A DNA stretch of 64,000 nucleotides from Escherichia coli (lineage in GTDB: Bacteria > Pseudomonadota > Gammaproteobacteria > Enterobacterales > Enterobacteriaceae), in assembly GCF_024298765.1 (NCBI RefSeq), contig NZ_CP101211.1; one strand, written 5' to 3'. A program made the position numbers and the translations under genes. Each line of letters opens with the position of its first letter. Positions within the stretch are counted from its first letter, which is position 1. The notes below the pieces were generated by a model, which was not told the DNA's origin, did not search any database, and saw only the letters and a list, made by a program, of their open reading frames with translations. Below are positions 1 to 64,000 of the stretch, in pieces.

Positions 1-421
1 ACGGACCTTACTCATATTCACAACATAACGACAAAGTACAAAGCCCCGATGAAATTCGAGCAACGAGTAACATACATTCTGCTCAACTTTATCCATTATC
101 TGTGGGCAAGTCTGTTCACTAAGCAGAAGCCTTAGCGCTCTATCATTGGTAAGGCTGTAAAATGTCTGCAAAAGGCCCCATCGGTAAATTGTTGGGGCTT
201 TTTCTTTGCGTAGTTCTGATACGGTTTATCCTGTGGAGCATTATGGCCACCAGCCAGCTGGTGACTGGCCAACGCTTTGTATGACGTAGCCTACTCAGGG
301 CAGGCTATTTTAGAGGGACCGATTTTTATCCGGGCTAATTTAGAAAGAGATAATTTGAACTTAGGCGGGCTGACCACCAGCAGAGAGGTAAATCACTAGC
401 CGGTGATATTGACAGAAGTCG

Positions 422-784
422 TCAGGGGTTTAACGCCGGAATATTTTGCCAGGCCTCCTGCAAGGTCTGCAAGACTTCTACAAGTGATAGTGACGGCCAC
501 AGGACTGTTTCCGTCATTATCACTCCAGGTGGCTCGCACTCTACTGGTACCAGAATTAAAACAACACGAGTTCCTTTTACCTGGTAGGCAAGGTTTACTG
601 CCGGTTGGCGGTAGGAGGCCAGTACACCCTCACCATATTGAGCAGGGTTACTTGCCCAGTTCCGCACCATTGCATACACCTGAGGCATATACCGACTATC
701 CAGATCCCCTTTGGGCCGTCTGAACGGCACGATTTCTTCTGAGCGGTAGGTGGTCGTTGTTGTATTGGTTGTCATCTTTGTCAC
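422..784 (-). CDS. hypothetical protein (120 aa)
   Basis: ORF on the same strand as neighbouring genes; no recognisable motif. Confidence 0.3.
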   Translation of the reverse strand: MTKMTTNTTTTTYRSEEIVPFRRPKGDLDSRYMPQVYAMVRNWASNPAQYGEGVLASYRQPAVNLAYQVKGTRVVLILVPVECEPPGVIMTETVLWPSLSLVEVLQTLQEAWQNIPALNP

Positions 785-840
785 CTCCCCTGTTCGTCCA
801 TTTAGAGTTTTAAGCTGCTTTACACATCACACTCAACTGA

Positions 841-1125
841 TTATTTAAGCTGGTCATCGTCTCTGGCCAGCATAGCCCAACCATTCGACTGGTTTTCGCG
901 GGAGTAAGGATTCATTTCAAAATAACTATCTACCGCGTCGCTGTCCGCAACAGAACTGTTGTTAGCTCTCTTTGAACCCTGAACCACTACAGCATCAACC
1001 TCTGCGGCTTTCCCGTTGCGCTGTACCAGGATTTTAACCGTCTTGGGCTTACGTCTTGCGAGCAGTTTGTTGGCGATAAAAAGCACAACAATCCAGGCCA
1101 AAAGCACGTATAAAAATTTATTCAT
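841..1125 (-). CDS. small membrane protein (94 aa, N-terminal TM helix)
   Basis: hydrophobic N-terminus YVLLAWIVVLFIA followed by a basic patch; palindrome motif at 1289 lies ~165 bp upstream. Confidence 0.5.
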   Translation of the reverse strand: MNKFLYVLLAWIVVLFIANKLLARRKPKTVKILVQRNGKAAEVDAVVVQGSKRANNSSVADSDAVDSYFEMNPYSRENQSNGWAMLARDDDQLK

Positions 1126-1288
1126 AATGCCCTCCTTTGTATGTGATTATTATACCTGCTTCCATTGCAGGCCAAACAGGTTCGGTGTATGAAAAATAGA
1201 CTTCTCTCCGGCGTATAGCAATCTACTTACTGATCTGTTTTCGTATCAAACTGTATGGCATAACCGAGGGGCGTACGTGGTGAGTCAG

Positions 1289-1300
1289 AAAGTTACTTTT
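1289..1300. promoter_or_regulatory. AAAGTTACTTTT palindrome copy (candidate operator)
   Basis: exact palindromic core flanked by GG..CC; upstream of 841..1125. Confidence 0.5.
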
Positions 1301-1481
1301 CCGTAATAGTTAATTTCAGATCCTTCTTCCAGTTACGCTTCAGTATAAAACCGATACCCTCTAATTCAGCATCCTTCACGTTTAATACGCTTCACTTTAA
1401 GGCAGGGCTTTTCGGTTGATATGAATTCTTTTTCCGGTTGCTGGACATGGGTTTCATCCTGATAGTTAAAATTGCAGGCTA

Positions 1482-1784
1482 TCAGTCACCACCACCACCT
1501 CCTCCTCCTCCTCCTCCACCGCCACCATCACAACCACCAGCTATGCTATTTTCACCATTACAATCACCTCCGAGGGGGTTCAAATGGCTGCTCCCCTGTA
1601 GATGGTGTCCTTGCCAGATCGAACCCGAACCAGCGCCTCCTGAGCGTCTTTGCTTGCCCTGAGGCAATTGTGCAGGCTCACCAGCACCGGCGGTCCCAAA
1701 AATGTCCCGGGCAATTTTATAAAGAAGGTAAAAAGGTACGCCCAGCATCATAAAAAAGATTACTGAAAATATTACACGTTCCAT
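1482..1784 (-). CDS. small membrane protein with C-terminal poly-Gly tract
   Basis: N-terminal TM segment; C-terminus GGCDGGGGGGGGGGGGGGD encoded by a (GGN)n trinucleotide repeat at about 1485-1540. Confidence 0.4.
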   Translation of the reverse strand: MERVIFSVIFFMMLGVPFYLLYKIARDIFGTAGAGEPAQLPQGKQRRSGGAGSGSIWQGHHLQGSSHLNPLGGDCNGENSIAGGCDGGGGGGGGGGGGGD

Positions 1785-2216
1785 TGATGATCTCCTGTCT
1801 TGTGAGAGACCAGTTATATCAGGGTGATTCAGTATTTCCGTTTAGAAAAGAGTACTAATTTGGCCCTGTTCGATCTTAATTTGCCATCCGGGAAAAAGTC
1901 ATAGGGATAGGCCTGCCAGAGTCAATAACTTCCAGTGATCTGGAGGAGACCCCGGCTCTCTGAGCCCTCATGGATGGTACGGCTTTACCCCCTGTAAACA
2001 GATTCACGTTCCGCAGGACAAACATCGACTACTGACGTCTCATATTTGCTGACGCTAATCCGACGTCTCATTGCCGTCTGCTTGTTTTCTTTAAAGGGTG
2101 TATTAGACGAATATCAAATCGGAATGGTAGGGGATGTGTGGGCACCATGCCCGGCCCTCTTTGAGCATCTGAGAGATTGGAGACCTAGCCGGGTAAGATA
2201 GCTACTTTCTTACGGG

Positions 2217-2585
2217 TTACCCTTCAAATCCAAAGACGAAACGGACGCTGCCGTTCTCCACGTGGAGACGCTTTACTTCTTCGACAAATTCCTGGATCAC
2301 CTCTCCGGCGTTATCGGGTGGTATGGCTGACAAAATTTCTTCCGAAGTCAGCCATGAGTATGAATGTTCACCGAATAAATCATCATCTTCGGACGGTATA
2401 TCATCAGGTAATCCGCGTAATGCGTGGATAAAAACTGCTGATGTGCTCGCCCTTTCACGATCTACATCAAATCCGAGCCAGGCAAAGTGGAGATATGATC
2501 GGTCCCCTTTATAATTGCTTGATAAATTAATCCATTTACCAGGCTTTTCTTCCCTTTGAAATCGCCAGCAGATATCAACGCCCAT
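2217..2585 (-). CDS. hypothetical protein (122 aa)
   Basis: ORF in co-directional gene string; acidic, no recognised domain. Confidence 0.45.
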   Translation of the reverse strand: MGVDICWRFQREEKPGKWINLSSNYKGDRSYLHFAWLGFDVDRERASTSAVFIHALRGLPDDIPSEDDDLFGEHSYSWLTSEEILSAIPPDNAGEVIQEFVEEVKRLHVENGSVRFVFGFEG

Positions 2586-2749
2586 TAAGAAACTCCATTA
2601 CTATCGTTCGTATGAGATAACTATCATTTCAGAATACTATGACTTCTTCCCGTATAGAACTAATCGCTCACGCCAACTGGGCGAAGCCAACCGGTTCCGC
2701 CACTTCGCTCATTGGTTTTTAGGCGTAAGCACTGAAGCCAGTCTCCATG

Positions 2750-3292
2750 CTAACTGGCGAGCCTGCGAAAGTCAGACTCGTTGTTATAAAGCGGCATATC
2801 GTAAGCGGTGTCTGAAATGAACATGCGGATCTGCTCAAGCGTCATGCCACAATGAAAACGGTTTACGCTCACATTGGCCCGGGGGAAGTCAGCACAAAAC
2901 GCATTCAAAACATTTTCATGGACAATGCCAATGTTGATCAACGCAGCTGGCCCGTTGTCACGGAAGGATACGACACGGAATCCCCCATACCAGCCTGAAT
3001 GGGAGAAAAATGAAAATGCGCCGGATGCCAGACCATTAGACAGGTCATAGCGCAATTTCCCGCACAGAGACTGGCTGTCTTTGCTGTACACGCGATTAAT
3101 GAAAATACCGGGACCAACTTCTACCGGCTGCTTGTTGCTTGCTAAACACGGAAAGCCCACCAGCGAAACCTCCCTTTCTCCTGACCAGTTTACCTGATAC
3201 CCGGCAGTGAGAAAGTCCGTCAGTTCTACGCCAGAAAGAGCATTAATGGCCGCGATATCGGTAGTCAAAATATTTACGTTTTTCATATTCAT
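2750..3292 (-). CDS. hypothetical protein (180 aa)
   Basis: ORF in co-directional operon. Confidence 0.5.
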   Translation of the reverse strand: MNMKNVNILTTDIAAINALSGVELTDFLTAGYQVNWSGEREVSLVGFPCLASNKQPVEVGPGIFINRVYSKDSQSLCGKLRYDLSNGLASGAFSFFSHSGWYGGFRVVSFRDNGPAALINIGIVHENVLNAFCADFPRANVSVNRFHCGMTLEQIRMFISDTAYDMPLYNNESDFRRLAS

Positions 3293-3353
3293 CTCATCTT
3301 TATTCTAAAGTGCGTTTTTTGTCTATCAGCCCGAGGATTGAAAATTTGAATAT

Positions 3354-3791
3354 TTAATGTGACAGATAAATACCTGTCACTTTTTCAAAAACAGCCTGTA
3401 ATTGAATATCGAGAGAGTTCATTTTAAAATCCACCAGCTCAGCTTTATTATCGCAAACCAAATAAAAATAGGAGTCAAATGCGTCTGTATCTTCATCTTT
3501 AAAAATACGGAAGGAATTAATTTTATCATGCCCTTCAAATTCGGCATGAATACCATAGCGAACCGAGCCGTCATCGAACTGAACAACCCGTCGTACAGAA
3601 TTAATCCGGACGTACTGTTTTAAGGCCCTCGCGAAATCGGCATTTAACGCCAACGCTCGTAAGATTGAATCAGCGGTTTCATTCTGCTTTTTACGATCGT
3701 ATTCAAATATCCCACAGCCGGTGTTACGAAAGACCGGCTGAAGAGCATTAACCAGGTTGAAGGAATCCACGTTTCTGTCGTTTCTGTACAT
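3354..3791 (-). CDS. hypothetical protein (145 aa)
   Basis: ORF in co-directional operon. Confidence 0.5.
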   Translation of the reverse strand: MYRNDRNVDSFNLVNALQPVFRNTGCGIFEYDRKKQNETADSILRALALNADFARALKQYVRINSVRRVVQFDDGSVRYGIHAEFEGHDKINSFRIFKDEDTDAFDSYFYLVCDNKAELVDFKMNSLDIQLQAVFEKVTGIYLSH

Positions 3792-3835
3792 GAGATATCT
3801 CCTGCCCCTCCGCTATACGAAGGGGCTTGATAGGG

Positions 3836-4132
3836 TTACTGCCAGGCTGCGATCACTTCTTCGCACTGGAAATGAGATAAGCACTGCTGGAGTAGAAGAG
3901 CCAGCACCGCTGTGTTAGGGACGCGATTGTTACACCACGCGTTGAAAAGCAGCTGCCATGGACCGGCATAATACCCGGCCAGTTTCTTTTTTTGTTTAGC
4001 TGTACGGCAGCGGGAAATGGCCTGCTGATAAAGGCTTTCATTCTCATCACCAGCCCGTTTTTGCAGAGTGCGATAAATATACGAATAAAGACTGTCAGAA
4101 CAGTTTGAAGCGTACGCCAGTTGTTTTTTCAT
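3836..4132 (-). CDS. hypothetical protein (98 aa)
   Basis: ORF with AGGAGG RBS; preceded by the TTATTAGCC-N16-TATAAT promoter-like element. Confidence 0.5.
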   Translation of the reverse strand: MKKQLAYASNCSDSLYSYIYRTLQKRAGDENESLYQQAISRCRTAKQKKKLAGYYAGPWQLLFNAWCNNRVPNTAVLALLLQQCLSHFQCEEVIAAWQ

Positions 4133-4175
4133 AATACCTCCTGTTTAGAAGTATTATATGTAAACAGCCTCAGCG

Positions 4176-4187
4176 GCTAATAACCCG
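4176..4187 (-). promoter_or_regulatory. conserved promoter-proximal element (GGTTATTAGCC on coding strand) with TATAAT 16 bp downstream
   Basis: read on minus strand: GGTTATTAGCC gctgaggctgtttaca TATAAT, then AGGAGG and ATG of 3836..4132. Confidence 0.5.
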
Positions 4188-4252
4188 TAGCAATATAATT
4201 TGCATTTTTTCTATTTCTGAAGACGCTTTTTAAATTAATATTTACTGAGTTA

Positions 4253-4531
4253 TCACAACTTATTATTCTTCCCGTCTGCTGTTTTATTAATCCCCCAGTT
4301 AGTAATCACGCCAAGTCGGCGCAATTTTTCACGTTGTTCATAAATAAAAAAATCGCCAAGGCAGTCTTTTAAAACTTCACTATCCTGATATTTTATTTTT
4401 TGAAGCATCCTCGCAACTATGGCGCGTTTCAGGAATATGGCTGCATCAGACTCAAGCATTTGTGAGGACTGTCTGACGGTCTCCTGCATGTCGACGATAC
4501 TGCTGAGCTTTCGTCTGACCACGCTTAGCAT
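4253..4531 (-). CDS. hypothetical protein (92 aa)
   Basis: ORF in operon. Confidence 0.4.
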   Translation of the reverse strand: MLSVVRRKLSSIVDMQETVRQSSQMLESDAAIFLKRAIVARMLQKIKYQDSEVLKDCLGDFFIYEQREKLRRLGVITNWGINKTADGKNNKL

Positions 4532-4715
4532 AGTGTCCGGGAACCGCTTAGCGGCTGAATGTAACCCGCAACAACGTTACGCATTGTTTTACTCACTGCA
4601 ATTTTCCATTTAAGTCTGTTTGTTCCACCAGCTGCTAACATCAGCGTTATTCATCCTGAGGTTTCGCCCGCGATTGACAGATCAGAGGCAGCATGGATGA
4701 AATTGCCAGAGTAGA

Positions 4716-4997
4716 TCACTGCATACGCGAATAGTGGTTTGTATTCAGTTCTGCGTTTGCCTGCTTTTCCAGTGCTGTCATAACCCGGCGGAGCATCGCC
4801 AGAGCCTGAACAGGCGAGCTCCCAAACTGCACTTTCACTTCAGCCGTATCATGATCCTGAATCAGGTCGAGTATATTCACTTCGATCCCTGCCCCGTTTT
4901 CATCTTTTGCCGTGCACTGAATACTTACCCGGGTCACCGAATCCGTCAGGACTGGCAGTGGGTTAGTTTTGTCTACGTTGATAACAGCCTTCTTCAT
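4716..4997 (-). CDS. hypothetical protein (93 aa)
   Basis: ORF immediately downstream of ParB-like gene. Confidence 0.45.
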   Translation of the reverse strand: MKKAVINVDKTNPLPVLTDSVTRVSIQCTAKDENGAGIEVNILDLIQDHDTAEVKVQFGSSPVQALAMLRRVMTALEKQANAELNTNHYSRMQ

Positions 4998-5062
4998 TGC
5001 CCTGTTTCCCCTTGTCCTGAAAAAGTTACCGACCCGTCCGGATGGAGGGGTCGGTCAGAAAA

Positions 5063-6247
5063 TCATGACTGTCCCTTGTTCATCTTATCAGCATGCTTAC
5101 GCAGGTACTCTTTCAGGTCAGCATGAGCGTTGATGATATCGTTCATTTCATCATTGGTCAGAACAAGCGTGTAAGTATCAGTACTGACAGATTCACCTTC
5201 TTTAAGCTTGGCTTCTTCAGCAATACGTTCAAAAATCGGGATCGCGGTGTCTGCAATGACGGTCACAGTCTTTTTGTTCAGAACGCTGGACATGGAAGGT
5301 GCTTTACCTGCCGGGTTCTGTTTAGGAGCGCTGTCCTTTGGAGCTGGAGCCGGTTCCTGTACCGGTGGCGTATCCAGCGTCTCCGTATTGCTTTCATCGT
5401 TCAGTTGATCCGGTACCGGGGTGTTATCGGTAGTATCATCTGCCGGTTGCTCAGCACCGATGTTTTCCGGAGTCTGCGGATCTGCCATGCGCTCTTCTAC
5501 CTTGGCAGCTTTGACGAATTTCAGCGTGTTTTTCGTCGCCTTGCCATAGATGGAGATCGCTTTGTTGATGTTATCTACCGCATCCTCACCGCTGTACATA
5601 TACTCGTCCAGTGCAACGTACATGCTCACCTGATCGCTCACAAGCATGGTCTGTAGTTCAGAAGGCAGGTCCAGTACGCGAACCATCTGGCGAAGATGCT
5701 GCTCTGATTTACCACGTTTTTTTGCCAGTTCCGCAAAGGTCTTAGGCTCTTCTTTATCTTCAACCAGACGCTTAATTGAAAGCGCTTCAGCTACGACAGA
5801 CAGCGCCAGGTTGGAGTTGCCGGTCAGGGTGAAGAGTTCTGCTTTTGAAGCGCTACCGCGAAACTCTTCGCAGCGAATACGAGTAATGCGTTCACGCCCT
5901 TCTGCTTCCAGCTGGCGGTTTGCAATAGCGATGGAACGGATACGGCAAGCCCCCTGACGCAGTACAGGTACGCCATTAACCATCTGAACAACGATAGGCG
6001 TCACGCTGAACGGGTCTTCCATGTAGGCATCGGCCAGGCTGTTCAGGTGTTCCACAACGTGAGGCATTGAATAGTAGAGCTCGCCCATACCGGCCGTGCG
6101 GGTGTTAAAGCCTTCCTGCTCTACAACAACCGAAGGGTCAATGATAAGGCCGTTGCCTTTACGGGCACCGTTACCAGTGCGTTCCAGGTAACCACGAAGG
6201 CTGATTTCGTTGCTGTTGTTTTTTACTTCAGTTTCGATTGCGGACAT
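5063..6247 (-). CDS. ParB-like nuclease domain protein (394 aa)
   Basis: ParB/Srx-type N-terminal box (GVPVLRQGACRIRS, compare paralog VRQGHCRLK at 58095..59258); Pro/Asp-rich acidic linker; two palindrome copies upstream. Confidence 0.75.
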   Translation of the reverse strand: MSAIETEVKNNSNEISLRGYLERTGNGARKGNGLIIDPSVVVEQEGFNTRTAGMGELYYSMPHVVEHLNSLADAYMEDPFSVTPIVVQMVNGVPVLRQGACRIRSIAIANRQLEAEGRERITRIRCEEFRGSASKAELFTLTGNSNLALSVVAEALSIKRLVEDKEEPKTFAELAKKRGKSEQHLRQMVRVLDLPSELQTMLVSDQVSMYVALDEYMYSGEDAVDNINKAISIYGKATKNTLKFVKAAKVEERMADPQTPENIGAEQPADDTTDNTPVPDQLNDESNTETLDTPPVQEPAPAPKDSAPKQNPAGKAPSMSSVLNKKTVTVIADTAIPIFERIAEEAKLKEGESVSTDTYTLVLTNDEMNDIINAHADLKEYLRKHADKMNKGQS

Positions 6248-6335: not shown

Positions 6336-6350
6336 AAAAAGTAACTTTTT
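6336..6350. promoter_or_regulatory. AAAAAGTAACTTTTT palindrome copy
   Basis: exact palindrome ~90 bp upstream of ParB-like start. Confidence 0.5.
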
Positions 6351-6462
6351 TTAAAAATTTTCCTGAGGCAATACTACTCGATCCGTCCGTTTTAAATCTT
6401 CACAACAGTGGGCCGTTTTTACGTTTAAGCAAAATAACTGGTTCAGAAGGTGACTCAGAGAG

Positions 6463-6475
6463 AAAAGTTACTTTT
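6463..6475. promoter_or_regulatory. AAAAGTTACTTTT palindrome copy
   Basis: second copy ~215 bp upstream of ParB-like start, with the extended form ...AGAAAAGTTACTTTTCCGG. Confidence 0.5.
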
Positions 6476-7348: not shown

Positions 7349-8293
7349 ATGAAACTTTCCCGTCAGACGACTTCTGATACTTCTGTTGATGGCCGTTCAC
7401 GCGCATATGCCTGGGGCCGTGTCCATTATTTCATTATCGAACATGCACCAATGGCTGAGCTGGTCGCTATTGACGAGCTGCTGGAAAAAGCTGGCTGGAG
7501 CAATGACGGCTGTCCGAACTATGAGAAAGATGACGAGTTTGGTAATGCTGGTTACAGCTGTGGTTACTGGATCGATATTGACAGCGTGGGAAGCTTCAAG
7601 GCTGACTACAAACGTCTTAAGGGGGAGATTAGTGCGCATATCGCCTCAAAGGCGGCAGAGGTGGAGATCCGCGTACTGGACTCGATGTCCGACAAAGAAT
7701 GTAAAGATGTTGCCTCGGTGGCATCTACTGTTCGCCGTGACTTACGTACGCAGTCCGAATCGCTTCATTCACTGCGTACAATCGTAACGGTTGATCATTA
7801 CAATCCCTATGTGACCACCAGCCGCCCGCTGAGCATTTCCGCCTGGACACTTATCCACGACTGTCTGAAAACAGGCACCATCAATGACGTCTGTTCACGG
7901 TTGAGTTCATTAATCCTGCACTCTGAAGCCGCGATTGCCCGTTGTAAGGGAAGCTCCGACTACTCTTCGGAACACGCTCAGCTATCGTTTTTTGCTGGTA
8001 ACGACTATGTCACCAGACGCACCCTTGTTGATGCAGCTCACGAAGAGGCTCTGCGAATGAACCGCCGCTTTGATGAACGCATTGCAATGAACGCGGATTC
8101 TGATGCCAGAAGGCTCCAGTGCGAATTCAACCTTAGCAACCATGTCGTACAGCGTAGGACCGTTGAATCTGCTCATATCCAGGCACTCAATGAAGACGTC
8201 ACCCGTTCACAGGCGGAACCACGCTGCCCTGGAAAGCTTCTTCTGAATATGACCAGTCATGAGGAAGTGCGGGACTCACTGAGCGCCTGTTAG
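7349..8293 (+). CDS. hypothetical protein (314 aa)
   Basis: first gene of a plus-strand four-gene block; TTGACA-like hexamer upstream. Confidence 0.5.
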   Translation: MKLSRQTTSDTSVDGRSRAYAWGRVHYFIIEHAPMAELVAIDELLEKAGWSNDGCPNYEKDDEFGNAGYSCGYWIDIDSVGSFKADYKRLKGEISAHIASKAAEVEIRVLDSMSDKECKDVASVASTVRRDLRTQSESLHSLRTIVTVDHYNPYVTTSRPLSISAWTLIHDCLKTGTINDVCSRLSSLILHSEAAIARCKGSSDYSSEHAQLSFFAGNDYVTRRTLVDAAHEEALRMNRRFDERIAMNADSDARRLQCEFNLSNHVVQRRTVESAHIQALNEDVTRSQAEPRCPGKLLLNMTSHEEVRDSLSAC

Positions 8294-8389
8294 TCCAGCG
8301 ACACCCCCTGCGGCTCTACTACCGGGCCGCAGTCTGCTCCTGCCCAGATGGTGCCAGTGGTGTAATGAATTTGTTTAATAAGGCTAAGT

Positions 8390-8992
8390 ATGATGAATAA
8401 AGAACAACTAATCGACAAACTGGAACGCGTGGTATGTGGTCAGTACTCCTACGAAATGCAGGAGCTTGCGTATTCGGCCCTCTGCTGCATTAAAGGCACC
8501 CCGGACGACTGCGCTAAGTTCCCTGTTACGCGTCCGCTGCCTGACACCTTAGTGGACGTATGGGACGAAATCGGGCAATACCTTGGCACAGGCAAAGCCA
8601 TTGAAACTCGCAGTTGCGGCGTTTCGCTTCTGCTTCATGGACACTGCTACGATTCAAATCATGTGCTTTACTGGCGCAATGCTGGCGCACTTCCAGCAGC
8701 TTGCGATACGCCACTGGCTGGTGGGTCTCGCAAACTGTTCACCTGCTCAGCCTGTGGAGTGGACGGTCTGGATGAACCACCTGAAACCAGTTGCCACTGC
8801 TGCACAGAGGGGGCCCACTGGGTTGAGAGCAGGCTCTTCACCTCCGGGCAGGCAGACCCTGAAGAATTTAGACCCGTGGCGGTCGTGAAAGAGTGTGCAG
8901 GCTCAACGCCGGATGATCGGCTCATCTGGAGTGTGATTGAACAGCTCAACGGCGAACTGGCGGAAGGCGATAAACTATTTAAGCGACGCTGA
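8390..8992 (+). CDS. Cys-rich hypothetical protein (200 aa)
   Basis: multiple CxxC/CC pairs (CSACG, CHCC); candidate metal-binding protein. Confidence 0.5.
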   Translation: MMNKEQLIDKLERVVCGQYSYEMQELAYSALCCIKGTPDDCAKFPVTRPLPDTLVDVWDEIGQYLGTGKAIETRSCGVSLLLHGHCYDSNHVLYWRNAGALPAACDTPLAGGSRKLFTCSACGVDGLDEPPETSCHCCTEGAHWVESRLFTSGQADPEEFRPVAVVKECAGSTPDDRLIWSVIEQLNGELAEGDKLFKRR

Positions 8993-9045
8993 CAGATCAC
9001 GGCAGCATTTATAACAGACGAACTCCAGAATAATTTAAAGCAACC

Positions 9046-9402: not shown

Positions 9403-9432
9403 ACGGCAGGTATCGCCTGTCATTTTACCCTT

Positions 9433-15806: not shown

Positions 15807-16003
15807 AGGCTTACTCTCCCTCTTCAGTGGACAACATCAGATACTTTGTTGCCAGCAGAAGCTCTCCCACATCCTTGAGGGACAATTCAGCTTTGCCTTC
15901 TACGGCAAGCTGCAAGCGCTGTCGAATTGCATGAACAGAATCTGAAGATAAAGATGCCATTTTGCGCAAAACGGCATTAGCCTTTTCTGGTAATGACTCC
16001 AAC

Positions 16004-54983: not shown

Positions 54984-55032
54984 AAGCCTGTATTTTACCA
55001 GGCTTATTCTGCGACAACCAGGATAAAGAGCG

Positions 55033-55380
55033 CTACAACATGGTCAGGGATGTCAGTAACCGCTTTGGCTGTCGCCAGTCGATACCTTCCATCAGCATCG
55101 CCAGTTGCGCCGGCGTCAGGAACACTTTGCCATCGCGGGCTGAGGGCCAGGCGAAGCGACCACGTTCCAGTCGCTTTGTCAGCAGGCACAGACCATCGCC
55201 GGTGGACCAGAGCAGTTTTACCTGACTGCCGCTGCGTCCCCGGAAGATGAAGACGTGGCCGGACATCGGGTCATCTTTCAGCGCGGTCTGCACCTTTGCG
55301 GCGAGGCCATTGAAGCCGTTGCGCATATCGGTGATACCGGCAACCAGCCAGATTTTTGTGCCTGCGGGAAGATTTATCAT
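55033..55380 (-). CDS. IS66-family Orf2 (TnpB)
   Basis: 115 aa, typical IS66 Orf2. Confidence 0.85.
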   Translation of the reverse strand: MINLPAGTKIWLVAGITDMRNGFNGLAAKVQTALKDDPMSGHVFIFRGRSGSQVKLLWSTGDGLCLLTKRLERGRFAWPSARDGKVFLTPAQLAMLMEGIDWRQPKRLLTSLTML

Positions 55381-55760
55381 ACAGGCCCCCGCATCAGTTC
55401 GCGCAGGACAGTGCTCATGAGTTCAGCAGAGGGATGAGTCAGTGTTATTTCTCCTCCCCGACATTTTATGTGGCAGGTAGCGGGAGGAGAGCAGGATGGT
55501 AGTTCGAAGGTTGGGAGAGAAGAGCCCGCCTGAAGCTGCACGGGTATCAGGGCAGGAAGCGACGATGAGTTTTTTCGGGGCCGACAGACCCGCCCTTCAC
55601 GCTGCCAGAGCCTTATCCATTTAAAGAGCAGGTTATCATTGACGTCATGTTTCCGGGCCAGTGCGGCAATACTGCCTTCTTCTTCAAGAGCCAGCCTGAC
55701 CAGTTCCATTTTGAATTCAGGGGAATAGTGTTTCCGGGGAAGTCTTTCTTTAGCGCGCAT
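55377..55760 (-). CDS. IS66-family Orf1 (TnpA)
   Basis: 127 aa HTH protein overlapping Orf2 by 4 nt. Confidence 0.8.
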   Translation of the reverse strand: MRAKERLPRKHYSPEFKMELVRLALEEEGSIAALARKHDVNDNLLFKWIRLWQREGRVCRPRKNSSSLPALIPVQLQAGSSLPTFELPSCSPPATCHIKCRGGEITLTHPSAELMSTVLRELMRGPV

Positions 55761-56155: not shown

Positions 56156-57847
56156 TCATAGGACTTCCTCTTGTTGAATACGTTCGGCGTACAGGATGCG
56201 AACCGAAACGGTCGTGTTTTCAAACTCGTTCTCAAAAACGTCCATCCATTCCGTCCGGAATTCTTCCCCCAAAAGGTTATCGAGCCCCTGAAGAGATAAT
56301 GGAAGAACGGCTGCTAGAGATCCCCCGGCTGCGAGATGAGATGCAGCTGCCTGGAGATGCAGCCTGGCCCGGTTATCGGCAAAAGGTGGGTTCATCACGA
56401 CATAATCAAACTTCTTCTGTTGATTAGACTTAGACCATGTGAGGAAGTCAGCTTCTGTCGTATCGTATCCCTTAGCCCGGGAGATAAGGCAATTCAAAGT
56501 ATCAAGCTCGATGCCAGTAACGATCACACCGGCAGGGAATGATTTAAGCAAATCCGCATGGCCAATATTAGGCTCCAGGAGGGTATCCCCTTCCCCTGCA
56601 CCAAGCAGGGAAGATACATATTCGCTGATTCGGCAAGATGAAGGGTAAAACTGATGCGATACAATATCAGGCATCTCCCCTATCTGGCCGATGTAACGAA
56701 TAACCTCACACGGATCATAGGAAAATGTCACATCGTATTTTGTTACTGTTGCCCCTAAGAACCGAAGGGTGTCAGCGGCAACACTCGAAGATTTGCGTTC
56801 GGCGAGAGACCCTAAAGATGTCCAGCAACTCCATTTATTGTCCCCGTCATTTTTAAACATCAGTTCAGAAAGCTGCATCCGGGTATCAAAGTCGATGCAC
56901 TGCTTAAGTACAGGGAATGCCTCCAAAGATTTCTTGCTATGAGCCATACGGTCGGCAGGTAATGCCAGCGGTACGATAGCTGATAAAATATTGTTAAGCC
57001 GCTCGGCGATATCAGGGTGGACGTCAATATGCATTGATCCATTTTTGTAAACCCTGAAACGAATACTGTTGCCATCGATGCAGATCCATTTTCTGAACCC
57101 CTCATGTTCGACCAACGCCTCAACCAATGATTTGGTGTTATGGATCGCCTTCACCTGTTCGCCACGGAAGAATGCGCATATAACGCGGAGCTCGCTCAGC
57201 GGTGAAATGCCAGACTCTTTAAAATCCACCCTTAATTTCTGCCAGGGGTATTTAGACGGCTCGCAAACTCCGGTAGTGATCATGCGGGTGGAGAACCCAA
57301 AAGCTTTGTTTGTCTTGTGACTGCGGCTCAGAGACTGGAAGACGTCGTAAACCCTTTCTTTAATAAATTGATTGCGGTCATTAAGCAAAGCAACGACTGT
57401 GCCCACTACAGCGTCAGCTGTGAAATCAGGGATCACCTGAGGCGGCATAATATAACGGTCGGCCGTAAACTGCTTATCCCATTCGTTACGTTTGGCATCC
57501 GACATGATAGGCAAAACATCAGTGAGTGCCATAACGCGTTTCCAGTATTCTGATCTCAGAGCGTTTTCTGCGAACAAAGCATCCGCTTCTGAGATGCTGT
57601 GGTTGTAGCCTGAGAGATAAGAATAAAGTTTCTGGTGATTGTGGGTTTTGAACTGGACAGCCATGAGTTTCAACAAGCAGAGTTCATCATTATAGGACTC
57701 AACAAGATCCGCGATAATGCCGAGCTCTTTGCGCATATCTGGAAGAAATGTTTCAGGAGAGCTAACCACCAGGCTATGAGAGGTTGTTAAAGCCAGTACG
57801 CTGTGACCTGCATTATCGGGTTTAGCTTCAGAATCAAGAGATGACAT
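56156..57847 (-). CDS. orphan DNA methyltransferase with large N-terminal domain (563 aa, NPPF motif)
   Basis: C-terminal VVMNPPF catalytic motif; N-terminal ~400 aa unassigned. Confidence 0.65.
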   Translation of the reverse strand: MSSLDSEAKPDNAGHSVLALTTSHSLVVSSPETFLPDMRKELGIIADLVESYNDELCLLKLMAVQFKTHNHQKLYSYLSGYNHSISEADALFAENALRSEYWKRVMALTDVLPIMSDAKRNEWDKQFTADRYIMPPQVIPDFTADAVVGTVVALLNDRNQFIKERVYDVFQSLSRSHKTNKAFGFSTRMITTGVCEPSKYPWQKLRVDFKESGISPLSELRVICAFFRGEQVKAIHNTKSLVEALVEHEGFRKWICIDGNSIRFRVYKNGSMHIDVHPDIAERLNNILSAIVPLALPADRMAHSKKSLEAFPVLKQCIDFDTRMQLSELMFKNDGDNKWSCWTSLGSLAERKSSSVAADTLRFLGATVTKYDVTFSYDPCEVIRYIGQIGEMPDIVSHQFYPSSCRISEYVSSLLGAGEGDTLLEPNIGHADLLKSFPAGVIVTGIELDTLNCLISRAKGYDTTEADFLTWSKSNQQKKFDYVVMNPPFADNRARLHLQAAASHLAAGGSLAAVLPLSLQGLDNLLGEEFRTEWMDVFENEFENTTVSVRILYAERIQQEEVL

Positions 57848-58094: not shown

Positions 58095-59258
58095 TTATTC
58101 TGCGTCCGGCTGTGGGTCAGTATCCTGATCGGTCTCTTCCCCTGCCTTCTTAGCATTTTTTTTACGTGGGTATTTTGGCTTCTCACCATTAAGTTTTGCC
58201 TGACGATTCTCCGCACGGCGAAGCTGCTTGTTCTCTGATTCTGTGATCTCTTTTGAAAGATTTCTCAACATCTCCAGAGTACTGCGGTTCAACGTAATGT
58301 TGATTTCTTCGTCAGCACTTGAATCTGTCAGCTCCGGCAATTCAATATCCCCCAGTTTCTGTAATAAGCTGGTGGTGATGAGTTTGACGCCTTCTACGGC
58401 TTTTGTGGCAATAACCGGCGGAATCCGTGCTGGCTTGAAGTCTGAAGGTCTGACTCGTACCTGACCATGTTGGGTTTTTTTCACCGTGATGCCATTCGCA
58501 TCGGCCTGCTCAAGTTCTGCGATCATCTTCTTGATACGTGAAATTGCTTCTGTTTCGCCGAGCTCATCGATCAGTGAAAGCACGTTAACATACGAAATAG
58601 CGTCAGCATGAATCCATTTCTTGATAACAACAGAACAGGTTGTCAGGCGGATAAGAGAACTGATGGTCGTCGGGCTTTTATTTTCACGTTGAGCAATTCG
58701 TTCGAGTGACCAGCCAGCAAGAGAATGTAGGCGACGATAGGACTCGCCAAGCGCAACAGGAGAAAGCGCAAGACCACGGTTACCATCAATGGTCGCGAGC
58801 TCACAGCCAATTTCATCTTCTTTAATCTCAACGCAAAGGATTGTGATGTCATGATCTTCATCACATGCCATCATTGCGGCTTTTAAACGGCAGTGCCCCT
58901 GGCGAACAAAAGGTACCCCATCAATGACACGTACTCGGATAGGGTCTACATAGTCACCTCGAATGTAGGCATTCTTGATGTTGTAGATGTGTTCTTCAAC
59001 CTCAGGGAGCTTATAGTAATCGTCACCCATTCCCATTTCGCGGGAGTTGAAGCCTGGCGTGACCTGAATTACTGAAGGGTGGATAGCCCATGCTTTCTGG
59101 TCACTTACTTCAGTACAAAGTTCAGGGTTTGCATCACGGAACTGTTTAAGCCCAGTGACGTAACGGCCTGTGCCAGTAACTACTGAAAAGGCAACATGGG
59201 CCGTTTTAAAGACCTTGTCATTAGCTTGCTGTGTAGGTTCTGTCAGTAAAACACTCAT
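58095..59258 (-). CDS. ParB-like nuclease domain protein (387 aa)
   Basis: GVPFVRQGHCRLKAA ParB box; paralog of 5063..6247. Confidence 0.75.
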   Translation of the reverse strand: MSVLLTEPTQQANDKVFKTAHVAFSVVTGTGRYVTGLKQFRDANPELCTEVSDQKAWAIHPSVIQVTPGFNSREMGMGDDYYKLPEVEEHIYNIKNAYIRGDYVDPIRVRVIDGVPFVRQGHCRLKAAMMACDEDHDITILCVEIKEDEIGCELATIDGNRGLALSPVALGESYRRLHSLAGWSLERIAQRENKSPTTISSLIRLTTCSVVIKKWIHADAISYVNVLSLIDELGETEAISRIKKMIAELEQADANGITVKKTQHGQVRVRPSDFKPARIPPVIATKAVEGVKLITTSLLQKLGDIELPELTDSSADEEINITLNRSTLEMLRNLSKEITESENKQLRRAENRQAKLNGEKPKYPRKKNAKKAGEETDQDTDPQPDAE

Positions 59259-59606: not shown

Positions 59607-60440
59607 TTGACTCGACATCTCAGACACATGCCGATAATCAAATGGGCTGGTGGAAAAACGAAACTGATGCCTTTCATCAGCCATCACTACCCACACGATC
59701 ATAGTTGCCGGTGGGTAGAACCCTTTATAGGCGGTGGTGCCGTTTTTCTGAACATGTTTGCACAAAATGCATTGCTTGCAGATAGCAATCCAGACTTGAT
59801 CAACCTATACAGGACTATTCAAAGACAGAAAACTAACTTTATAAATCAGGTCCAAAACTTGGCGGATAAAACCTTTGTCGAAAAGGACTACTATGAGATG
59901 AGGGACCGTTTCAACAAAACCTGTATTTCTGGTCAATCGCTTCAAAGAGCGGCTTTGTTTTACTCCCTGAATCGCCTGGGCTATAACGGTATGTGCCGCT
60001 ATAACTCAGAAAGAATCTATTCAGTGCCGTGGGGGAAACATACAGAACTGAAGCTTGACCTCAATAAAATAGACTACCTTTCATTTCGTCTTTCAGGTAT
60101 TGAACTGATCACCGCTGGTTTTGAGGAGACTCTGGCCGCAACCGGTGAAGGAGATCAGATTTACTGTGATCCGCCATATGACAAAACAAGCAAAACTAGT
60201 TTTGTCAGTTACGATGGTAAACCGTTCAGCCAAAGCGACCACGTGCTGTTAGCAAATATGCTCGTTGACGCTCACAGAAAAGGCGCTGCTGTTGCGATAT
60301 CAAATAGCCTGACATCATTCACTTTGGGCCTCTATGAAGAGCGTGGATTCGTCATACACAGACTCAGCGCTTACCGATCCGTAGGAAGTAAGCCGAATAC
60401 ACGGAAAACGGAAACAGAAATACTGGCCGTGCTGAAATAG
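59607..60440 (+). CDS. Dam-family N6-adenine DNA methyltransferase (orphan)
   Basis: IKWAGGK N-terminal motif, EPF.GGGAVFLN, NRLGYNGMCRYN and DPPY catalytic motif as in E. coli Dam; true start may be the ATG at 59628. Confidence 0.85.
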   Translation: MTRHLRHMPIIKWAGGKTKLMPFISHHYPHDHSCRWVEPFIGGGAVFLNMFAQNALLADSNPDLINLYRTIQRQKTNFINQVQNLADKTFVEKDYYEMRDRFNKTCISGQSLQRAALFYSLNRLGYNGMCRYNSERIYSVPWGKHTELKLDLNKIDYLSFRLSGIELITAGFEETLAATGEGDQIYCDPPYDKTSKTSFVSYDGKPFSQSDHVLLANMLVDAHRKGAAVAISNSLTSFTLGLYEERGFVIHRLSAYRSVGSKPNTRKTETEILAVLK

Positions 60441-60448: not shown

Positions 60449-61114
60449 CTAATCAACTGGGCTAATCCATTCCTCAAAAGTTAATACCTCAGGGTAAGTT
60501 CGTTGAACATAAGGTATAAACTGAAGCTCTTCTATTCTCCGGTCGCCCCTCTTTCCTTCGCAAATAAATGAAATGAGTCCTTGCTGAGAAAGGCCAGTAA
60601 GGACGCTCATAAGTCTTATATTTAGACTTTTAAGCTGTAAGTCGTTATTAATGTCCTCCACTTTATGAGAGCTCTGGCCTGAACGTTTAAGATACTCGTA
60701 AACCATGAAATTCGAATTTCGTCGTTTTAACAATTTTTCGGTTATGCATTCCTGAATGAAGTCGCCAAGAGCATCTAAAAGCGGACTGAGAACTACCGGG
60801 AAAGTTAATGTGTAACTTTGAGAAGTTTTAGACAAAGTGAATGAGTTTAGAAAGCTAAAGTTTAGTCTCTTTTTTGAATATGGAACATAAGCGACAAGAG
60901 TAGTCGACATAACAGTAAGTAAAGCTTCAAGATGGTTCACTGTTATTAAAGTGGCTTTATCTGTATTTCTAAGATTATGGAAATCAATAAACGCTACTCT
61001 TGAACGGCTAAGCCAATCTTGTACTTTAATGTCGATAGAAAATTGCGAGATATGATTTGAACATTCATTTTGGGTGATAGGGCATGCAGACGAAAGATGG
61101 TTATGGATTATCAT
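60449..61114 (-). CDS. hypothetical protein (start placed at internal Met so that the palindrome is upstream)
   Basis: long ORF 60449..61306; upstream palindrome at 61202 suggests the shorter start; start uncertain. Confidence 0.35.
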   Translation of the reverse strand: MIIHNHLSSACPITQNECSNHISQFSIDIKVQDWLSRSRVAFIDFHNLRNTDKATLITVNHLEALLTVMSTTLVAYVPYSKKRLNFSFLNSFTLSKTSQSYTLTFPVVLSPLLDALGDFIQECITEKLLKRRNSNFMVYEYLKRSGQSSHKVEDINNDLQLKSLNIRLMSVLTGLSQQGLISFICEGKRGDRRIEELQFIPYVQRTYPEVLTFEEWISPVD

Positions 61115-61201
61115 GCATAGCACAAAAAAAGGAAAACGGCAGGCTGTGGGGCATTGAAAACCGGTTAAAGAAAGCTTAGACGTTTCATATGCGCTTACCG
61201 G

Positions 61202-61214
61202 AAAAGTAACTTTT
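61202..61214. promoter_or_regulatory. AAAAGTAACTTTT palindrome copy
   Basis: CCGGAAAAGTAACTTTTC. Confidence 0.45.
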
Positions 61215-61537
61215 CTTAACGTTGGCTTTGACGATGTTCTTGCATTTTTACAAATGAAACCGAGACCCAGATCATTGTGCATTTTAAAGTCCATCTCCAT
61301 CATCACCTTTTAGCCTTAACTGTATGGTATTGGTATACAAAAAATTAAAATTATAATTAATAAGATTATCATTTTTTTACAATAGAAAAGGTTCTGATAG
61401 AGGAGAATTTAAATGTAAAAGATTTATACTCGCAGATCTTTATGAGGGATAAAACCCATTGCGTAAGCAACAATATTACGTGAGTGAGTCCTAACGACAG
61501 TTAAAGTCTTGGCTCTATATTTAAGCAGCAAAAACAT

Positions 61538-62254
61538 TTAACTGTCTTGGAGTTTATTTAACTTAAAAACTGTTATTGCAGCATAATTTTTCGAATCAAA
61601 TTCATAGAATTTTCTGACTTTTCCAGTCAAATGATAACGTTCACCCAATAAAATGTGATCCTGTTTATCGGCCGTTAAAGCGATCCCGTCATTTCTAACT
61701 TTACCAGTAAATGTAAAAAAATAACTCCCTTTACTTTTTGCGTACGCGGCCCTGACTTCAGTAAATGTTAGTTCAATGCTTATGACCTGGCCGATATTGT
61801 AGCTATGTTTTAAAATTTCTTGTTCATTTTCCGGAGTTTCAGACAACATCACATCAAAAGTTGTAAAGAAACAATCCAGCTGGCGTTCTGTCAAGAAACG
61901 GTTATTGTCTAATTGCGCCAATATACTATTAGAAAACTTAGTGTTAGCCTTTTTTGCTTTCTCAATAAGGACGTGGTTTCTGGATTTCCATGCTTCGAGT
62001 GTTGGGTTAACACGCAGTTCCGGAATGTTATCGAGAAAGGTAATTGGCTCTAGTGCCACTAATTTTTCAATAATGGGTCCAACTGTTTGTACCCCATGAC
62101 ACTTTTCACATAAATCAGCCCCTTTGTGGCCTGTGCCCGCACATTCGTTACATTCTCTTTCGATAGGTGCATAATAATTTCCATCTCCGTTAAGTGATAC
62201 ATTCACTGAGGCTGGTACCATATGACCATCAAGAGTAAAGAAAAGAGATTTCAT
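61538..62254 (-). CDS. zinc-ribbon protein (238 aa)
   Basis: CNECAGTGHKGADLCEKCHG (CxxC...CxxC). Confidence 0.5.
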   Translation of the reverse strand: MKSLFFTLDGHMVPASVNVSLNGDGNYYAPIERECNECAGTGHKGADLCEKCHGVQTVGPIIEKLVALEPITFLDNIPELRVNPTLEAWKSRNHVLIEKAKKANTKFSNSILAQLDNNRFLTERQLDCFFTTFDVMLSETPENEQEILKHSYNIGQVISIELTFTEVRAAYAKSKGSYFFTFTGKVRNDGIALTADKQDHILLGERYHLTGKVRKFYEFDSKNYAAITVFKLNKLQDS

Positions 62255-62451
62255 TTTCGAAACACCTCCAAACGTGCCTCTACGATTGCTACAGCTTCTT
62301 TCACAGTTTTTTCATAGTGGTCATGCCCTTCAGGAAATTGATCAAAACGTTTACCGTGTTCTAACTCTTCCATGTTGCGTTTAAGGACTTCATGAGTTAG
62401 AAGCAAATCACTATAATTATCGATAAGAGTCAGCTTTATAGGTTTAATCAC
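62251..62451 (-). CDS. hypothetical protein (66 aa)
   Basis: ORF overlapping the downstream gene by 4 nt. Confidence 0.35.
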   Translation of the reverse strand: MIKPIKLTLIDNYSDLLLTHEVLKRNMEELEHGKRFDQFPEGHDHYEKTVKEAVAIVEARLEVFRK

Positions 62452-62468
62452 TCAACTAATCCTCGTTT

Positions 62469-63524
62469 TTAATATTCCTTAAGGAGATCTCGAATTTCCA
62501 GAAGCTCTTCTAATTTTGGTTTAGAAACAATGATTGCTGTATTTTCGTCGTTAAGTAAAGACAATAAAATATTTAGCTTTTCATCATTCAAGATTATTTG
62601 AACACCATCATTGGAAAATATTACATTATTACTATTAACATTTTTGAACAAGTGTGCACTATCTCTACCAAATTTTAGTTCTGTTTGAGTATTCGTTATA
62701 GATTCCGTATGTGTACTTTCCACAAGCTCAAGAAATTCAGATTTTAGCCGTTCTGTTTTCTTATGCGAGAGGCGCTTAATACCCAAAGTCTTACGAGTGA
62801 CTGCCGAATTTTTCTTTTCTGGTCCGCCTTTATTTAAGGTGTCTGGTCCTGCTCCAGCTGCATTGTGTTCAGGTATGCCTACAATTTTGCTCGTTGTAGT
62901 CTCAATATTCTTAACGCCAGGTAAGAAACCTTCTATATGTTTTAAAACCATTTTGTGATCGTTGGAATATTTTAACATTATTTCAATGGCGAGCGTTTTT
63001 TTGATTAGATTTAGGCTAATCAAATGTTGAAGCTCTAATGGCATATCAAGGATTTTTAGCATATTACGAATTGCGGTAGTTGATCGTTGATATCGCATTG
63101 CTAGTTCTTCAACCGAATACCCGAGACTAACAGCATGAGCTAATGCATGAGCTTGCCCAACCGGATTTAGCCCATTGCTTCTGTTACCATCGAGGTTCTC
63201 AAGGTATTCTTCAATTTCGTTTTTATAATCGATTAGGATAACAGATAATTTTGGAATATTAGCACCTTCAGAAATTGCTAATTTTAAGCCATGAAAACGA
63301 GTATGACCTTGACGAACTAAATATTTACCTTTTCTTTTTACGACCTTGATCATATCAACCTGCCTTCCTTCCTTAAAGGCTTGTTTGATTGACACAATCA
63401 TCGACTTGACAGGTTCTTGTTCGTAACACAAATCTCCGATTACCGCCTCTCGGGGATTAAATCCCTTTTCAATTTCAACTAGATTAGTATCCACTTCAAT
63501 GACTGTATGTTTGCTGTTGTTCAT
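62469..63524 (-). CDS. ParB-like nuclease domain protein (351 aa)
   Basis: GFNPRE and YLVRQGHTRFHG ParB-box signatures. Confidence 0.75.
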   Translation of the reverse strand: MNNSKHTVIEVDTNLVEIEKGFNPREAVIGDLCYEQEPVKSMIVSIKQAFKEGRQVDMIKVVKRKGKYLVRQGHTRFHGLKLAISEGANIPKLSVILIDYKNEIEEYLENLDGNRSNGLNPVGQAHALAHAVSLGYSVEELAMRYQRSTTAIRNMLKILDMPLELQHLISLNLIKKTLAIEIMLKYSNDHKMVLKHIEGFLPGVKNIETTTSKIVGIPEHNAAGAGPDTLNKGGPEKKNSAVTRKTLGIKRLSHKKTERLKSEFLELVESTHTESITNTQTELKFGRDSAHLFKNVNSNNVIFSNDGVQIILNDEKLNILLSLLNDENTAIIVSKPKLEELLEIRDLLKEY

Positions 63525-63729
63525 ATCTTCCTCCTGTTTACTACATGATACATGAACCTCAAATTTGCCAAATAGGGCTGATACATCTAAAAGGTAAACT
63601 CAAAAAATTTGCTTAATAAAATTAAAATAAAAACTGTCTTGAATAAAACAATGATAGTAGACCCTCGTTCATTTCCGTTTGCGATCTGTAGATATTGTTA
63701 AAGGAGCGCTATTCCTTGTTTTATATGGA

Positions 63730-63960
63730 CTTATCATTGTTTTCAACAGGATAGATCAATTCTTTAGATCACTAAAGATCAATAGAGTTCAAGTAAAGAT
63801 CACGGCATCTTTAACTCATTGATTATAGTGACTTTATGAAAGGATCCGGCATTCGGATGCATGCGAAAAGCATTTGAATGAATAAGGAAGGCATTTACTG
63901 GAATGCTTATGGCATTTAGGTTAATGCGTAAAAAGCATTTGCAAGAATATGTTATAAACA
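63730..63960. repeat. GATC-rich (AGATCA x4) and GCATTT-repeat region
   Basis: four AGATCA within ~60 bp, then five GCATTT in ~90 bp; upstream of ParB-like gene. Confidence 0.4.
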
Positions 63961-64000
63961 GTTTGCCAAATGAAAATCTTATCACCGACGAGTTAAGTTA

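Follow-up and report, generated by a model that had tools for sequence, protein, structure and literature searches.

Orphan DNA methyltransferases in a mosaic IncHI2 plasmid backbone from Escherichia coli and their possible link to conjugation

A stretch of 64,000 nucleotides from Escherichia coli (contig NZ_CP101211.1, assembly GCF_024298765.1; referred to at its full length as the window) was analysed. The window is the conserved and already known backbone of a conjugative IncHI2 resistance plasmid (R478-type, MOBH, MPF-F). It begins where the relaxase operon ends and reaches the boundary with the second replicon and Tra2, and in content it is a mosaic rather than a single island. The orphan DNA methyltransferases (methylases) of this mosaic probably provide conjugation-coupled self-methylation for restriction evasion. 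The original prediction, made from the letters alone, had read the gene content as a plasmid leading-region or anti-defence island.

The window was compared with PLSDB by megablast. Window positions 20–44 kb matched 1326 records, with coverage of at least 80% in 904 and identity of at least 99% in 791. Most of the matching plasmids were conjugative by mobility type, and their hosts were Escherichia, Salmonella, Enterobacter, Klebsiella, and Citrobacter. The same pattern of matches was obtained with the flanking thirds. Identity to plasmids typed IncHI2A/MOBH/MPF_F was 100%. Enterobacter hormaechei plasmid pG17-1 (NZ_CP079936.1; 264,084 bp; typed IncHI2A, MOBH, MPF_F) was used as the reference. 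Record positions 200862–216849 corresponded to window 1–15988, and 216841–264084 to window 16757–64000. The sole difference was a 768-bp insertion sequence (IS), IS1, which is missing from pG17-1 and from most relatives and therefore serves as a lineage marker of the source plasmid. The near-total match identified the sequence as known IncHI2 (R478-type) backbone. Near-identity to typed plasmids, a RepHI2 initiator with iterons, and IncHI synteny between Tra1 and Tra2 were all found. A prophage origin was rejected, with 0 matches among 50,697 phage records.

The gene order on pG17-1 was Tra1, the origin of transfer (oriT), mobI/MobH relaxase/traD, the window, a RepB-family rep gene, and Tra2. 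The mating-pair genes of Tra1 (trhG, trhH, and others) lie on the minus strand at 181.8–190.1 kb. The relaxase operon lies on the plus strand at 190.9–201.0 kb and contains mobI, an open reading frame (ORF), the MobH relaxase gene, traD, two ORFs, an S49 peptidase gene, and a NERD gene; a DUF4400 gene is also a member of this operon upstream of the window. Tra2 follows the RepB-family rep gene and consists of trhA, L, E, K, B, V, C, parAB, parM, htdA, rsp, trhF, W, U, N, and trhI. The typed IncHI2/MOBH relatives, together with Tra1, Tra2, and the MobH relaxase on the flanks, confirmed the conjugative-plasmid context that had been proposed.

The single island of the original prediction was not recovered, as the window includes the RepHI2 replicon, three immunoglobulin-like (Ig-like) surface proteins of about 800 aa each, and five IS elements (IS150, IS1, ISKpn18, IS5, and IS66). 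Alongside these are several leftward operons of small uncharacterised genes, in which the methyltransferase-like, DndC-like, and HNH genes are found. Other general features of the prediction held, among them the concentration of methylase, ParB-like, and toxin–antitoxin genes. Nearly all genes were said to be co-directional, and 58 of the 70 annotated coding sequences (CDS) are on the minus strand. Many small ORFs of no assigned function were also described; the 50 proteins scanned against Pfam (E ≤ 0.001) were these, the PAPS-reductase-like protein, and three ParB-like proteins, and 46 of them had no Pfam domain. No known anti-defence domain was found by Pfam among the 46, and their PHROG matches carried no functional annotation.

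The backbone was compared with R27 (IncHI1). R27 has homologues for 43 of the 70 window CDS in the same order, with 29–90% amino-acid identity, and its genes R0037–R0115, between RepHIA/Tra2 and the H operon, are orthologous to the window. The common order is ParB-like3, Znf, R0040, Dam, ParB-like2, DUF4942 methylase, Ig-like, rep, Ig-like, HigB, PAPS reductase, DUF957/DUF3085, hok, ParB-like1, and NERD. The conserved core consists of ParB-like3, Znf, R0040, Dam, ParB-like2 plus the DUF4942 methylase, the PAPS-reductase gene plus the two acidic genes that precede it, HigB plus a 393-aa protein, hok, and the ParB-like1 operon. Relative to R27, IncHI2 has gained the beta-class methylase block (25.9–29.7 kb), the HNH block, the NPPF methylase, the DUF5417 block, and different IS elements, whereas R27 has Tn10 and other insertions of its own.

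Four methylases had been predicted in the window, and all showed the stated motifs and additional family support. The catalytic and S-adenosylmethionine-binding motifs are intact: TSPPY and DPFAG, with TSPPY first as in the beta-class order; NPPF in two genes; and EPFIGGG and DPPY. The DUF4942 methylase is 70% identical to R27 R0043. The RefSeq start of the Dam gene (59667) drops the conserved N-terminal KWAGGK motif; ATG 59628 is the best start because it restores this motif, giving 270 aa. A fifth methyltransferase-like gene, absent from the original prediction, lies directly upstream of the beta-class methylase gene, is 'hypothetical' in RefSeq, and gave only a weak RrnaAD-type match in Pfam. 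No restriction-enzyme model matched among the methylase neighbours, some of which are uncharacterised proteins; at the level of model searches, the methylases are orphans with no adjacent cognate endonuclease. The Dam gene and the convergent 284-aa gene, 9 bp apart, were considered as a restriction–modification pair, and the pair was rejected on the grounds of no nuclease model match and a predicted tandem winged-helix fold.

That all methylases of the plasmid lie in the window was rejected, since a Dcm gene and a second DUF4942 gene were found within 100–150 kb of pG17-1, at 126–132 kb. They belong to a second backbone islet (121–133 kb) with genes for a thermonuclease, a Dcm cytosine methylase, DUF1173, and a short DUF4942 protein. 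A AAAGTAACTTT site lies about 240 bp upstream of this Dcm gene. The R27 counterpart at 139–145 kb contains R0153 ('partition protein') and R0154 (cytosine methylase), which were derepressed 15.6- and 11-fold in an htdA mutant.

In R27, inactivation of the gene for the repressor HtdA at 25 °C derepresses 139 of the 181 genes that are expressed, 106 of them non-tra genes, and the H operon rises 5–11 fold. The orthologues of window genes responded as follows: R0040 (284-aa protein), 18.6-fold; the conserved small ORFs R0100, R0093, and R0092, 17.5-, 14.4-, and 12.3-fold; R0045 (Ig-like), 8.4-fold; R0041 (Dam), 7.8-fold; R0038 (66-aa ORF), 7.0-fold; R0101 (hok), 5.9-fold; R0039 (Znf-like), 5.0-fold; R0037 (ParB-like3), 4.2-fold; R0042 (ParB-like2), 3.4-fold; and R0104 (ParB-like1), 2.6-fold. 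These genes are derepressed with the tra genes in the mutant, and the region is therefore co-regulated with conjugation.

According to the mechanism proposed here, the orphan methylases would methylate the plasmid's own DNA. Restriction systems of new hosts would then act poorly on the transferred strand (T-strand) and on the hemimethylated duplex synthesised from it. Methylase expression would be tied to the conjugation regulon, in which activation by TrhR/TrhY is opposed by HtdA. The methylases would thus be on in transfer-competent donors, and a transient derepression may give an expression burst in a recipient lacking HtdA. Such protection would require neither first entry nor single-strand promoters. 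An anti-defence role of the methylase modules is plausible.

The IncC plasmids, which like IncHI2 are MOBH, provide a precedent. Their hde (host-defence-evasion) operon is experimentally defined in anti-restriction and anti-CRISPR functions, and their orphan dcm genes are reported to help in crossing restriction barriers (Roy et al. 2020, PMC7498323). The IncC anti-defence genes lie 50–100 ORFs from oriT by the count of a 2025 preprint. Anti-defence genes far from oriT therefore have a precedent in MOBH, because IncC keeps functional ones there. IncC also carries a PAPS-reductase-like gene, 47% identical to that of the window, in a co-directional array with hde and a dcm methylase, about 15 kb from hde. 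The ssb, bet, and exo genes of IncC, in contrast, were not found by tblastn in IncHI2. Outside the window and downstream of Tra2, pG17-1 41.6–47.9 kb contains AAA ATPase, DUF3150, VWA, and toprim genes. This region is partly syntenic with IncC hde, and its AAA ATPase, 27% identical to IncC Vcrx089, is the only hde-like gene of IncHI2. Orphan methylases of the M.EcoGIX type on pESBL are reportedly ParB–methylase fusions. The window resembles pESBL in its plasmid-borne orphan methylases, but its ParB-like and methylase genes are separate and its position is not leading. Samuel et al. (2024, PMC11541004) cite the pESBL methylases as methylating single-stranded DNA on its entry, at an early stage of conjugation.

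Several points weigh against conjugation-coupled self-methylation. Methylase activity, methylase specificity, and protection against restriction are all inferred. The comparison with R27 showed that the beta-class and NPPF methylases are IncHI2-specific additions, and they are therefore not core to IncHI biology. The Dam-type methylase could serve replication or gene regulation instead, and the ParB-like proteins may be unrelated to defence. The orthologue of the DUF4942 methylase, R0043, was barely derepressed in the htdA mutant (1.5-fold), and several R27 non-tra genes are higher at 37 °C. The transfer polarity of IncHI is an assumption taken from convention.

The strongest rival, to which we give about one chance in four, is that the modules are regulatory or housekeeping. 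The ParB-like proteins would be KorB/VirB/BisD-like regulators of an H-NS-silenced plasmid, the methylases would tune replication or transcription, and maintenance or conjugation would be the role of the small ORFs. KorB, VirB, and BisD are established examples of regulators with a ParB fold, and IncHI plasmids encode their own H-NS and Hha. The three ParB-family paralogues of the window, all on the minus strand, are 22–28% identical to each other. Each is the first gene of a leftward operon, and each matched phrog_1033 (E 1e-21 to 3e-28), TIGR00180 below the cut-off, and the Pfam helix-turn-helix (HTH) model HTH_ParB. The alignments to TIGR00180 and phrog_1033 extend from the N-terminal domain through the HTH. 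A segment 'RQG-x-x-R', which aligns with the GxxR P-motif of ParB, is invariant in all seven aligned sequences, so that an N-terminal ParB fold with the P-motif and a central HTH are both present. These proteins had been described as having ParB-like nuclease domains. None of the three matched the Pfam 'ParB-like nuclease' model, and 'ParB-family' is thus accurate while 'nuclease' is unsupported. ParB-like1 is 65% identical to its R27 homologue, and its orthologues share an S-x-x-H-x-R recognition-helix pattern unlike paralogues 2 and 3. R0042, the ParB-like2 orthologue, is very highly expressed, with the highest microarray signal among the R27 rows examined.

A palindrome dispersed through the backbone also favours regulation. 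AAAGTWACTTT occurred 14 times in the window against 0.06 expected (positions 1289, 6338, 6464, 14903, 17887, 20618, 25667, 29879, 35083, 40800, 43024, 51195, 51260, and 61203). In an unbiased count of all 10-, 11-, and 12-mer palindromes, AAAGTNACTTT occurred 15 times in the window (next-best palindrome 3), 40 times in R27 1–150 kb (next-best 3), and 17 times in a 23-kb backbone of a Klebsiella IncHI1B-type plasmid (next-best 2), and 0 times in a 42-kb IncC locus. R27 thus carries the same motif. There are 50 sites across pG17-1 and 0 in the accessory resistance-gene segments (~94–121 kb and 134–172 kb). The sites are promoter-proximal; two flank the hairpins of oriT and others precede Tra2 genes, so the palindrome is common to tra promoters, oriT, and window operons. 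A cluster of sites precedes ParB-like1 in each of three IncHI lineages, with 2 in IncHI2, 2 in R27, and 6 in the IncHI1B-type plasmid. A literature search for the palindrome sequence returned nothing relevant to IncHI. The distribution of sites is reminiscent of the KorB operators of RK2 or of VirB and BisD sites, and suggests that AAAGTNACTTT is a candidate operator of a plasmid-wide KorB/VirB-like regulon.

The kil-kor/KorB system of RK2 (IncP-1) is similar in its ParB-family HTH protein, in a palindromic operator dispersed in backbone promoters, and in small-gene operons of unassigned function that are co-regulated with transfer. RK2 has about 12 KorB operator sites, whereas there are about 50 candidate sites here; the operator sequences are unrelated, and IncHI2 has three paralogues besides its true partition ParB. 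A further proposal, which we hold tentatively and consider doubtful, is that the IncHI establishment and anti-restriction genes at the conventionally last-transferred end are wired by the regulon of the strictly conserved AAAGTNACTTT. A ParB-CTPase-like binder, with ParB-like1 as the best candidate, would act as a KorB/VirB-like clamp that couples them to conjugation, unlike the F paradigm. TrhR/TrhY and HtdA are equally plausible as binders.

Against a purely regulatory role stands the number of methylase-like genes: five to seven, of four different classes, are more than regulation seems to need. Two of the methylases are recent lineage-specific gains, the pattern expected of an arms race, and the orphan methylases of IncC are reported to help cross restriction barriers. 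The regulatory explanation also overlaps with conjugation-coupled self-methylation and does not exclude it.

A true leading region, as originally predicted, is improbable. Both Samuel et al. (2024, PMC11541004) and the 2025 preprint place the leading region on the side of oriT that faces away from the relaxase. The prediction had proposed a search for oriT and a relaxase in the flanks, and both were located: the MobH relaxase operon lies directly upstream, and the putative oriT is a 760-bp intergenic region outside the window, between the trhR-side and mobI-side promoters. It has three consecutive hairpins with 14-bp arms (AAAGTGACCCTATG ... CATAGGGTCACTT) and 9-nt loops at about 190.43–190.58 kb of pG17-1. 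The window starts about 10.4 kb from it on the relaxase side and would therefore enter last under the usual convention. With a relaxase operon on the plus strand, convention makes the minus strand the T-strand, and the genes that it could template are those on the plus strand. The minus-strand genes of the window have the T-strand as their sense strand under this polarity and would not be transcribable from incoming single-stranded DNA.

The position could be rescued if polarity were reversed, that is, if the T-strand of IncHI (MOBH) plasmids left oriT in the direction of the relaxase operon. Entry of the window would then fall within the first 10–74 kb, and the T-strand would be the template for 58 of the 70 genes, in agreement with the orientation rule of Samuel et al. 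(PMC11541004). The hairpins of oriT are symmetric and so carry no information on the nicked strand. No experimental determination of IncHI transfer polarity was found in the literature, and reviews do not state it. Attempts to map the nick site and polarity of the related IncA/C oriT failed. MOB-H groups lack an anti-defence peak on the conventional leading side, and a preprint questions the F-plasmid model for MOB-H. However, under reversed polarity the first 10 kb to enter would be the plus-strand relaxase operon, contrary to the usual relaxase-last arrangement. The conventional leading side of IncHI2 consists of the Tra1 F operon, a lytic transglycosylase gene, HAD and dsb genes, and then umuDC. 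The umuDC genes, 15 kb from oriT on this opposite side, point towards oriT, and umuCD is a frequent outer boundary of leading-region islands (Samuel et al. 2024, PMC11541004). A vegetative replicon also lies inside the window.

The hallmark genes ssb, psiB, and ardA, for which the original prediction also proposed a search, were not found. No Pfam match to ssb, psiB/psiA, ardA, klcA, ardC, or anti-CRISPR was obtained among the window proteins; ssb, psiB, ardA, and klcA are not annotated on the rest of pG17-1; and neither E. coli SSB nor the IncC ssb, bet, and exo queries had a tblastn match on any part of the plasmid. Of the inverted repeats listed in the window, the longest all lie within the iteron array or at IS ends, and no Frpo-like element was found in this listing, to which no dedicated Frpo model was applied. 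The window does resemble leading-region anti-defence islands (PMC11541004) in being part of a conjugative plasmid and in its orphan methylases, toxin–antitoxin genes, and many small uncharacterised co-directional ORFs (five methylase-like genes, hok, and a HigB-like gene). It differs from them in its relaxase-side position, its location on the conventional non-template strand, its internal replicon, and the failure to find ssb, psiB, ardA, klcA, acr, or a Frpo-like element. The window is a warning against calling a leading region on gene content alone.

The PAPS-reductase-like protein of the original prediction was confirmed as DndC-like in its N-terminal part (PADLOC DndC E 4e-38; TIGR03183 E 6e-34, below the cut-off). 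Its C-terminal remainder had no match in Pfam or NCBIfam. The gene is 75% identical in R27. No other Dnd component (dndA, B, D, E, or dptFGH) was found among its neighbours, and a complete Dnd or BREX system around it was rejected; of Dnd there is a DndC-like domain alone, below the NCBIfam cut-off. The predicted HNH nuclease was likewise confirmed by its PHROG match. A defence or addiction island, in which methylases are paired with nucleases (HNH, a Dnd-like DndC module, or an unrecognised restriction enzyme) that attack phages, rival plasmids, or plasmid-free cells, is very unlikely: the DndC-like domain, the HNH gene in the same array, the convergent gene 9 bp from Dam, and the NERD gene at the window edge favour it, but no dndA, B, D, E or dptFGH and no restriction-enzyme or complete-system match in PADLOC were found, the Dam neighbour is a predicted winged-helix protein and not a nuclease, and the HNH gene, which R27 lacks, lies 7 kb away from the nearest methylase.

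The remaining features are listed in Table 1. The HigB-like toxin of the original prediction was recovered, and the 393-aa protein that follows it had no significant HTH match. For hok/mok, the Hok peptide was verified, whereas mok and Sok were not; Rfam gave no sok or other RNA family at the gathering score. IS150 lies about 100 bp upstream of hok. The 81-bp unit downstream of repHI2 holds a 40-bp palindrome, TGACAACGGTAGTGA-N10-TCACTACCGTTGTCA, with two iteron-like half-sites matching the iterons upstream of repHI2, and the array is probably a copy-control or incompatibility array. A 93-aa hypothetical protein at 12850–13131(-) carries the PLSDB/RGI label 'Brucella suis mprF, defensin resistance' at 100% identity; this resistance-gene call looks spurious. 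IncHI2 backbone proteins are also encoded on a 4.94-Mb, chromosome-sized record (CP015574.1; GCA_002119485.1), which suggests a chromosomally integrated IncHI2 plasmid or a mis-joined assembly.

Table 1. Features of the window, with positions in the 64,000-nucleotide stretch.
Feature	Position	Strand	Evidence or remark
NERD-domain gene, 3' end, last gene of relaxase (H) operon	1..135	+	R27 R0115 labelled '(H)'
Leftward operon: ParB-like1 (5063-6247), then nine small uncharacterised ORFs	422..6247	-	R27 homologues for 7/9 ORFs
Two AAAGTWACTTT palindromes, 96 and 222 bp upstream of ParB-like1	6338..6474		Same arrangement in R27
IncHI2-specific plus-strand block (DUF5417 and small ORFs)	7349..9651	+	R27 comparison
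hok, 52-aa Hok-family toxin	10070..10228	-	PF01848; translation
IS150 transposase genes	10327..11696	-	Annotation
IS1 insertion	15989..16756	-	9-bp target duplication; splits DUF957 gene; not in pG17-1
HNH endonuclease, IncHI2-specific	19093..19626	-	phrog_2118 E 2e-55
DndC-like PAPS-reductase-family protein, 794 aa	20735..23119	-	DndC-like over residues 60-364; C-terminal extension
Two acidic uncharacterised proteins, 149 and 263 aa	23292..24584	-	Conserved upstream of PAPS-reductase gene
Beta-class N6A/N4C DNA methyltransferase, IncHI2-specific	26303..27553	-	TSPPY residue 133, DPFAG 359; Pfam N6_N4_Mtase
Fifth methyltransferase-like protein, 202 aa, IncHI2-specific	27722..28330	-	phrog_15480 'methyltransferase' E 4.6e-34
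HigB-like toxin (31306-31602), then 9 bp later conserved 393-aa protein	30116..31602	-	PF05015
Ig-like protein 1 (DUF4165 and Big_3)	32557..34947	-	Domain matches
NPPF (gamma-like) DNA methyltransferase	38285..39046	+	NPPF; MTS/N6_Mtase matches
Ig-like protein 2	40500..42920	+	Domain matches
ISKpn18 (IS3 family)	43422..44662	-	Inverted repeat
81-bp tandem array, 11.2 copies, downstream of repHI2	44995..45897		Repeat analysis
repHI2 replication initiator	46386..47474	-	pG17-1 annotation
Two iteron sets, 21-bp spacing, upstream of repHI2	47669..48221		Repeat analysis
Ig-like protein 3, two AAAGTAACTTT sites upstream (51195, 51260)	48582..51038	-	Domain matches
IS5 and IS66 elements	52163..55760		Annotation
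DUF4942 NPPF DNA methyltransferase	56156..57847	-	NPPF, DUF4942 and MTS; phrog_6263 'DNA methyltransferase' E 1.6e-112
ParB-like2, heads operon containing DUF4942 methylase	58095..59258	-	R27 orthologue R0042
Dam-family adenine methyltransferase	59628..60440	+	TIGR00571 E 6e-59 (above curated cut-off); EPFIGGG, DPPY
284-aa tandem winged-helix protein, convergent with Dam	60449..61303	-	Predicted fold; R27 R0040 orthologue
ParB-like3 (62469-63524), 66-aa ORF, zinc-finger-like protein	61538..63524	-	ParB-family matches

In Salmonella, E. coli, Enterobacter, and Klebsiella, IncHI2 plasmids are major carriers of resistance genes, among them mcr-1 and those for extended-spectrum beta-lactamases. 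In recent surveys, MOB-H plasmids show no leading-region anti-defence peak, IncHI1 has no known anti-defence system, and IncHI2 was dropped as its oriT was unknown (2025 preprint). The element studied here is itself already known, and its function bears on how MOBH plasmids cope with the defences of their recipients. The window supplies candidates, namely five methylase-like genes, about 45 small ORFs, and a DndC-like protein whose conservation extends from IncHI to IncC, and adds a testable regulatory link to the TrhR/TrhY–HtdA conjugation circuit.

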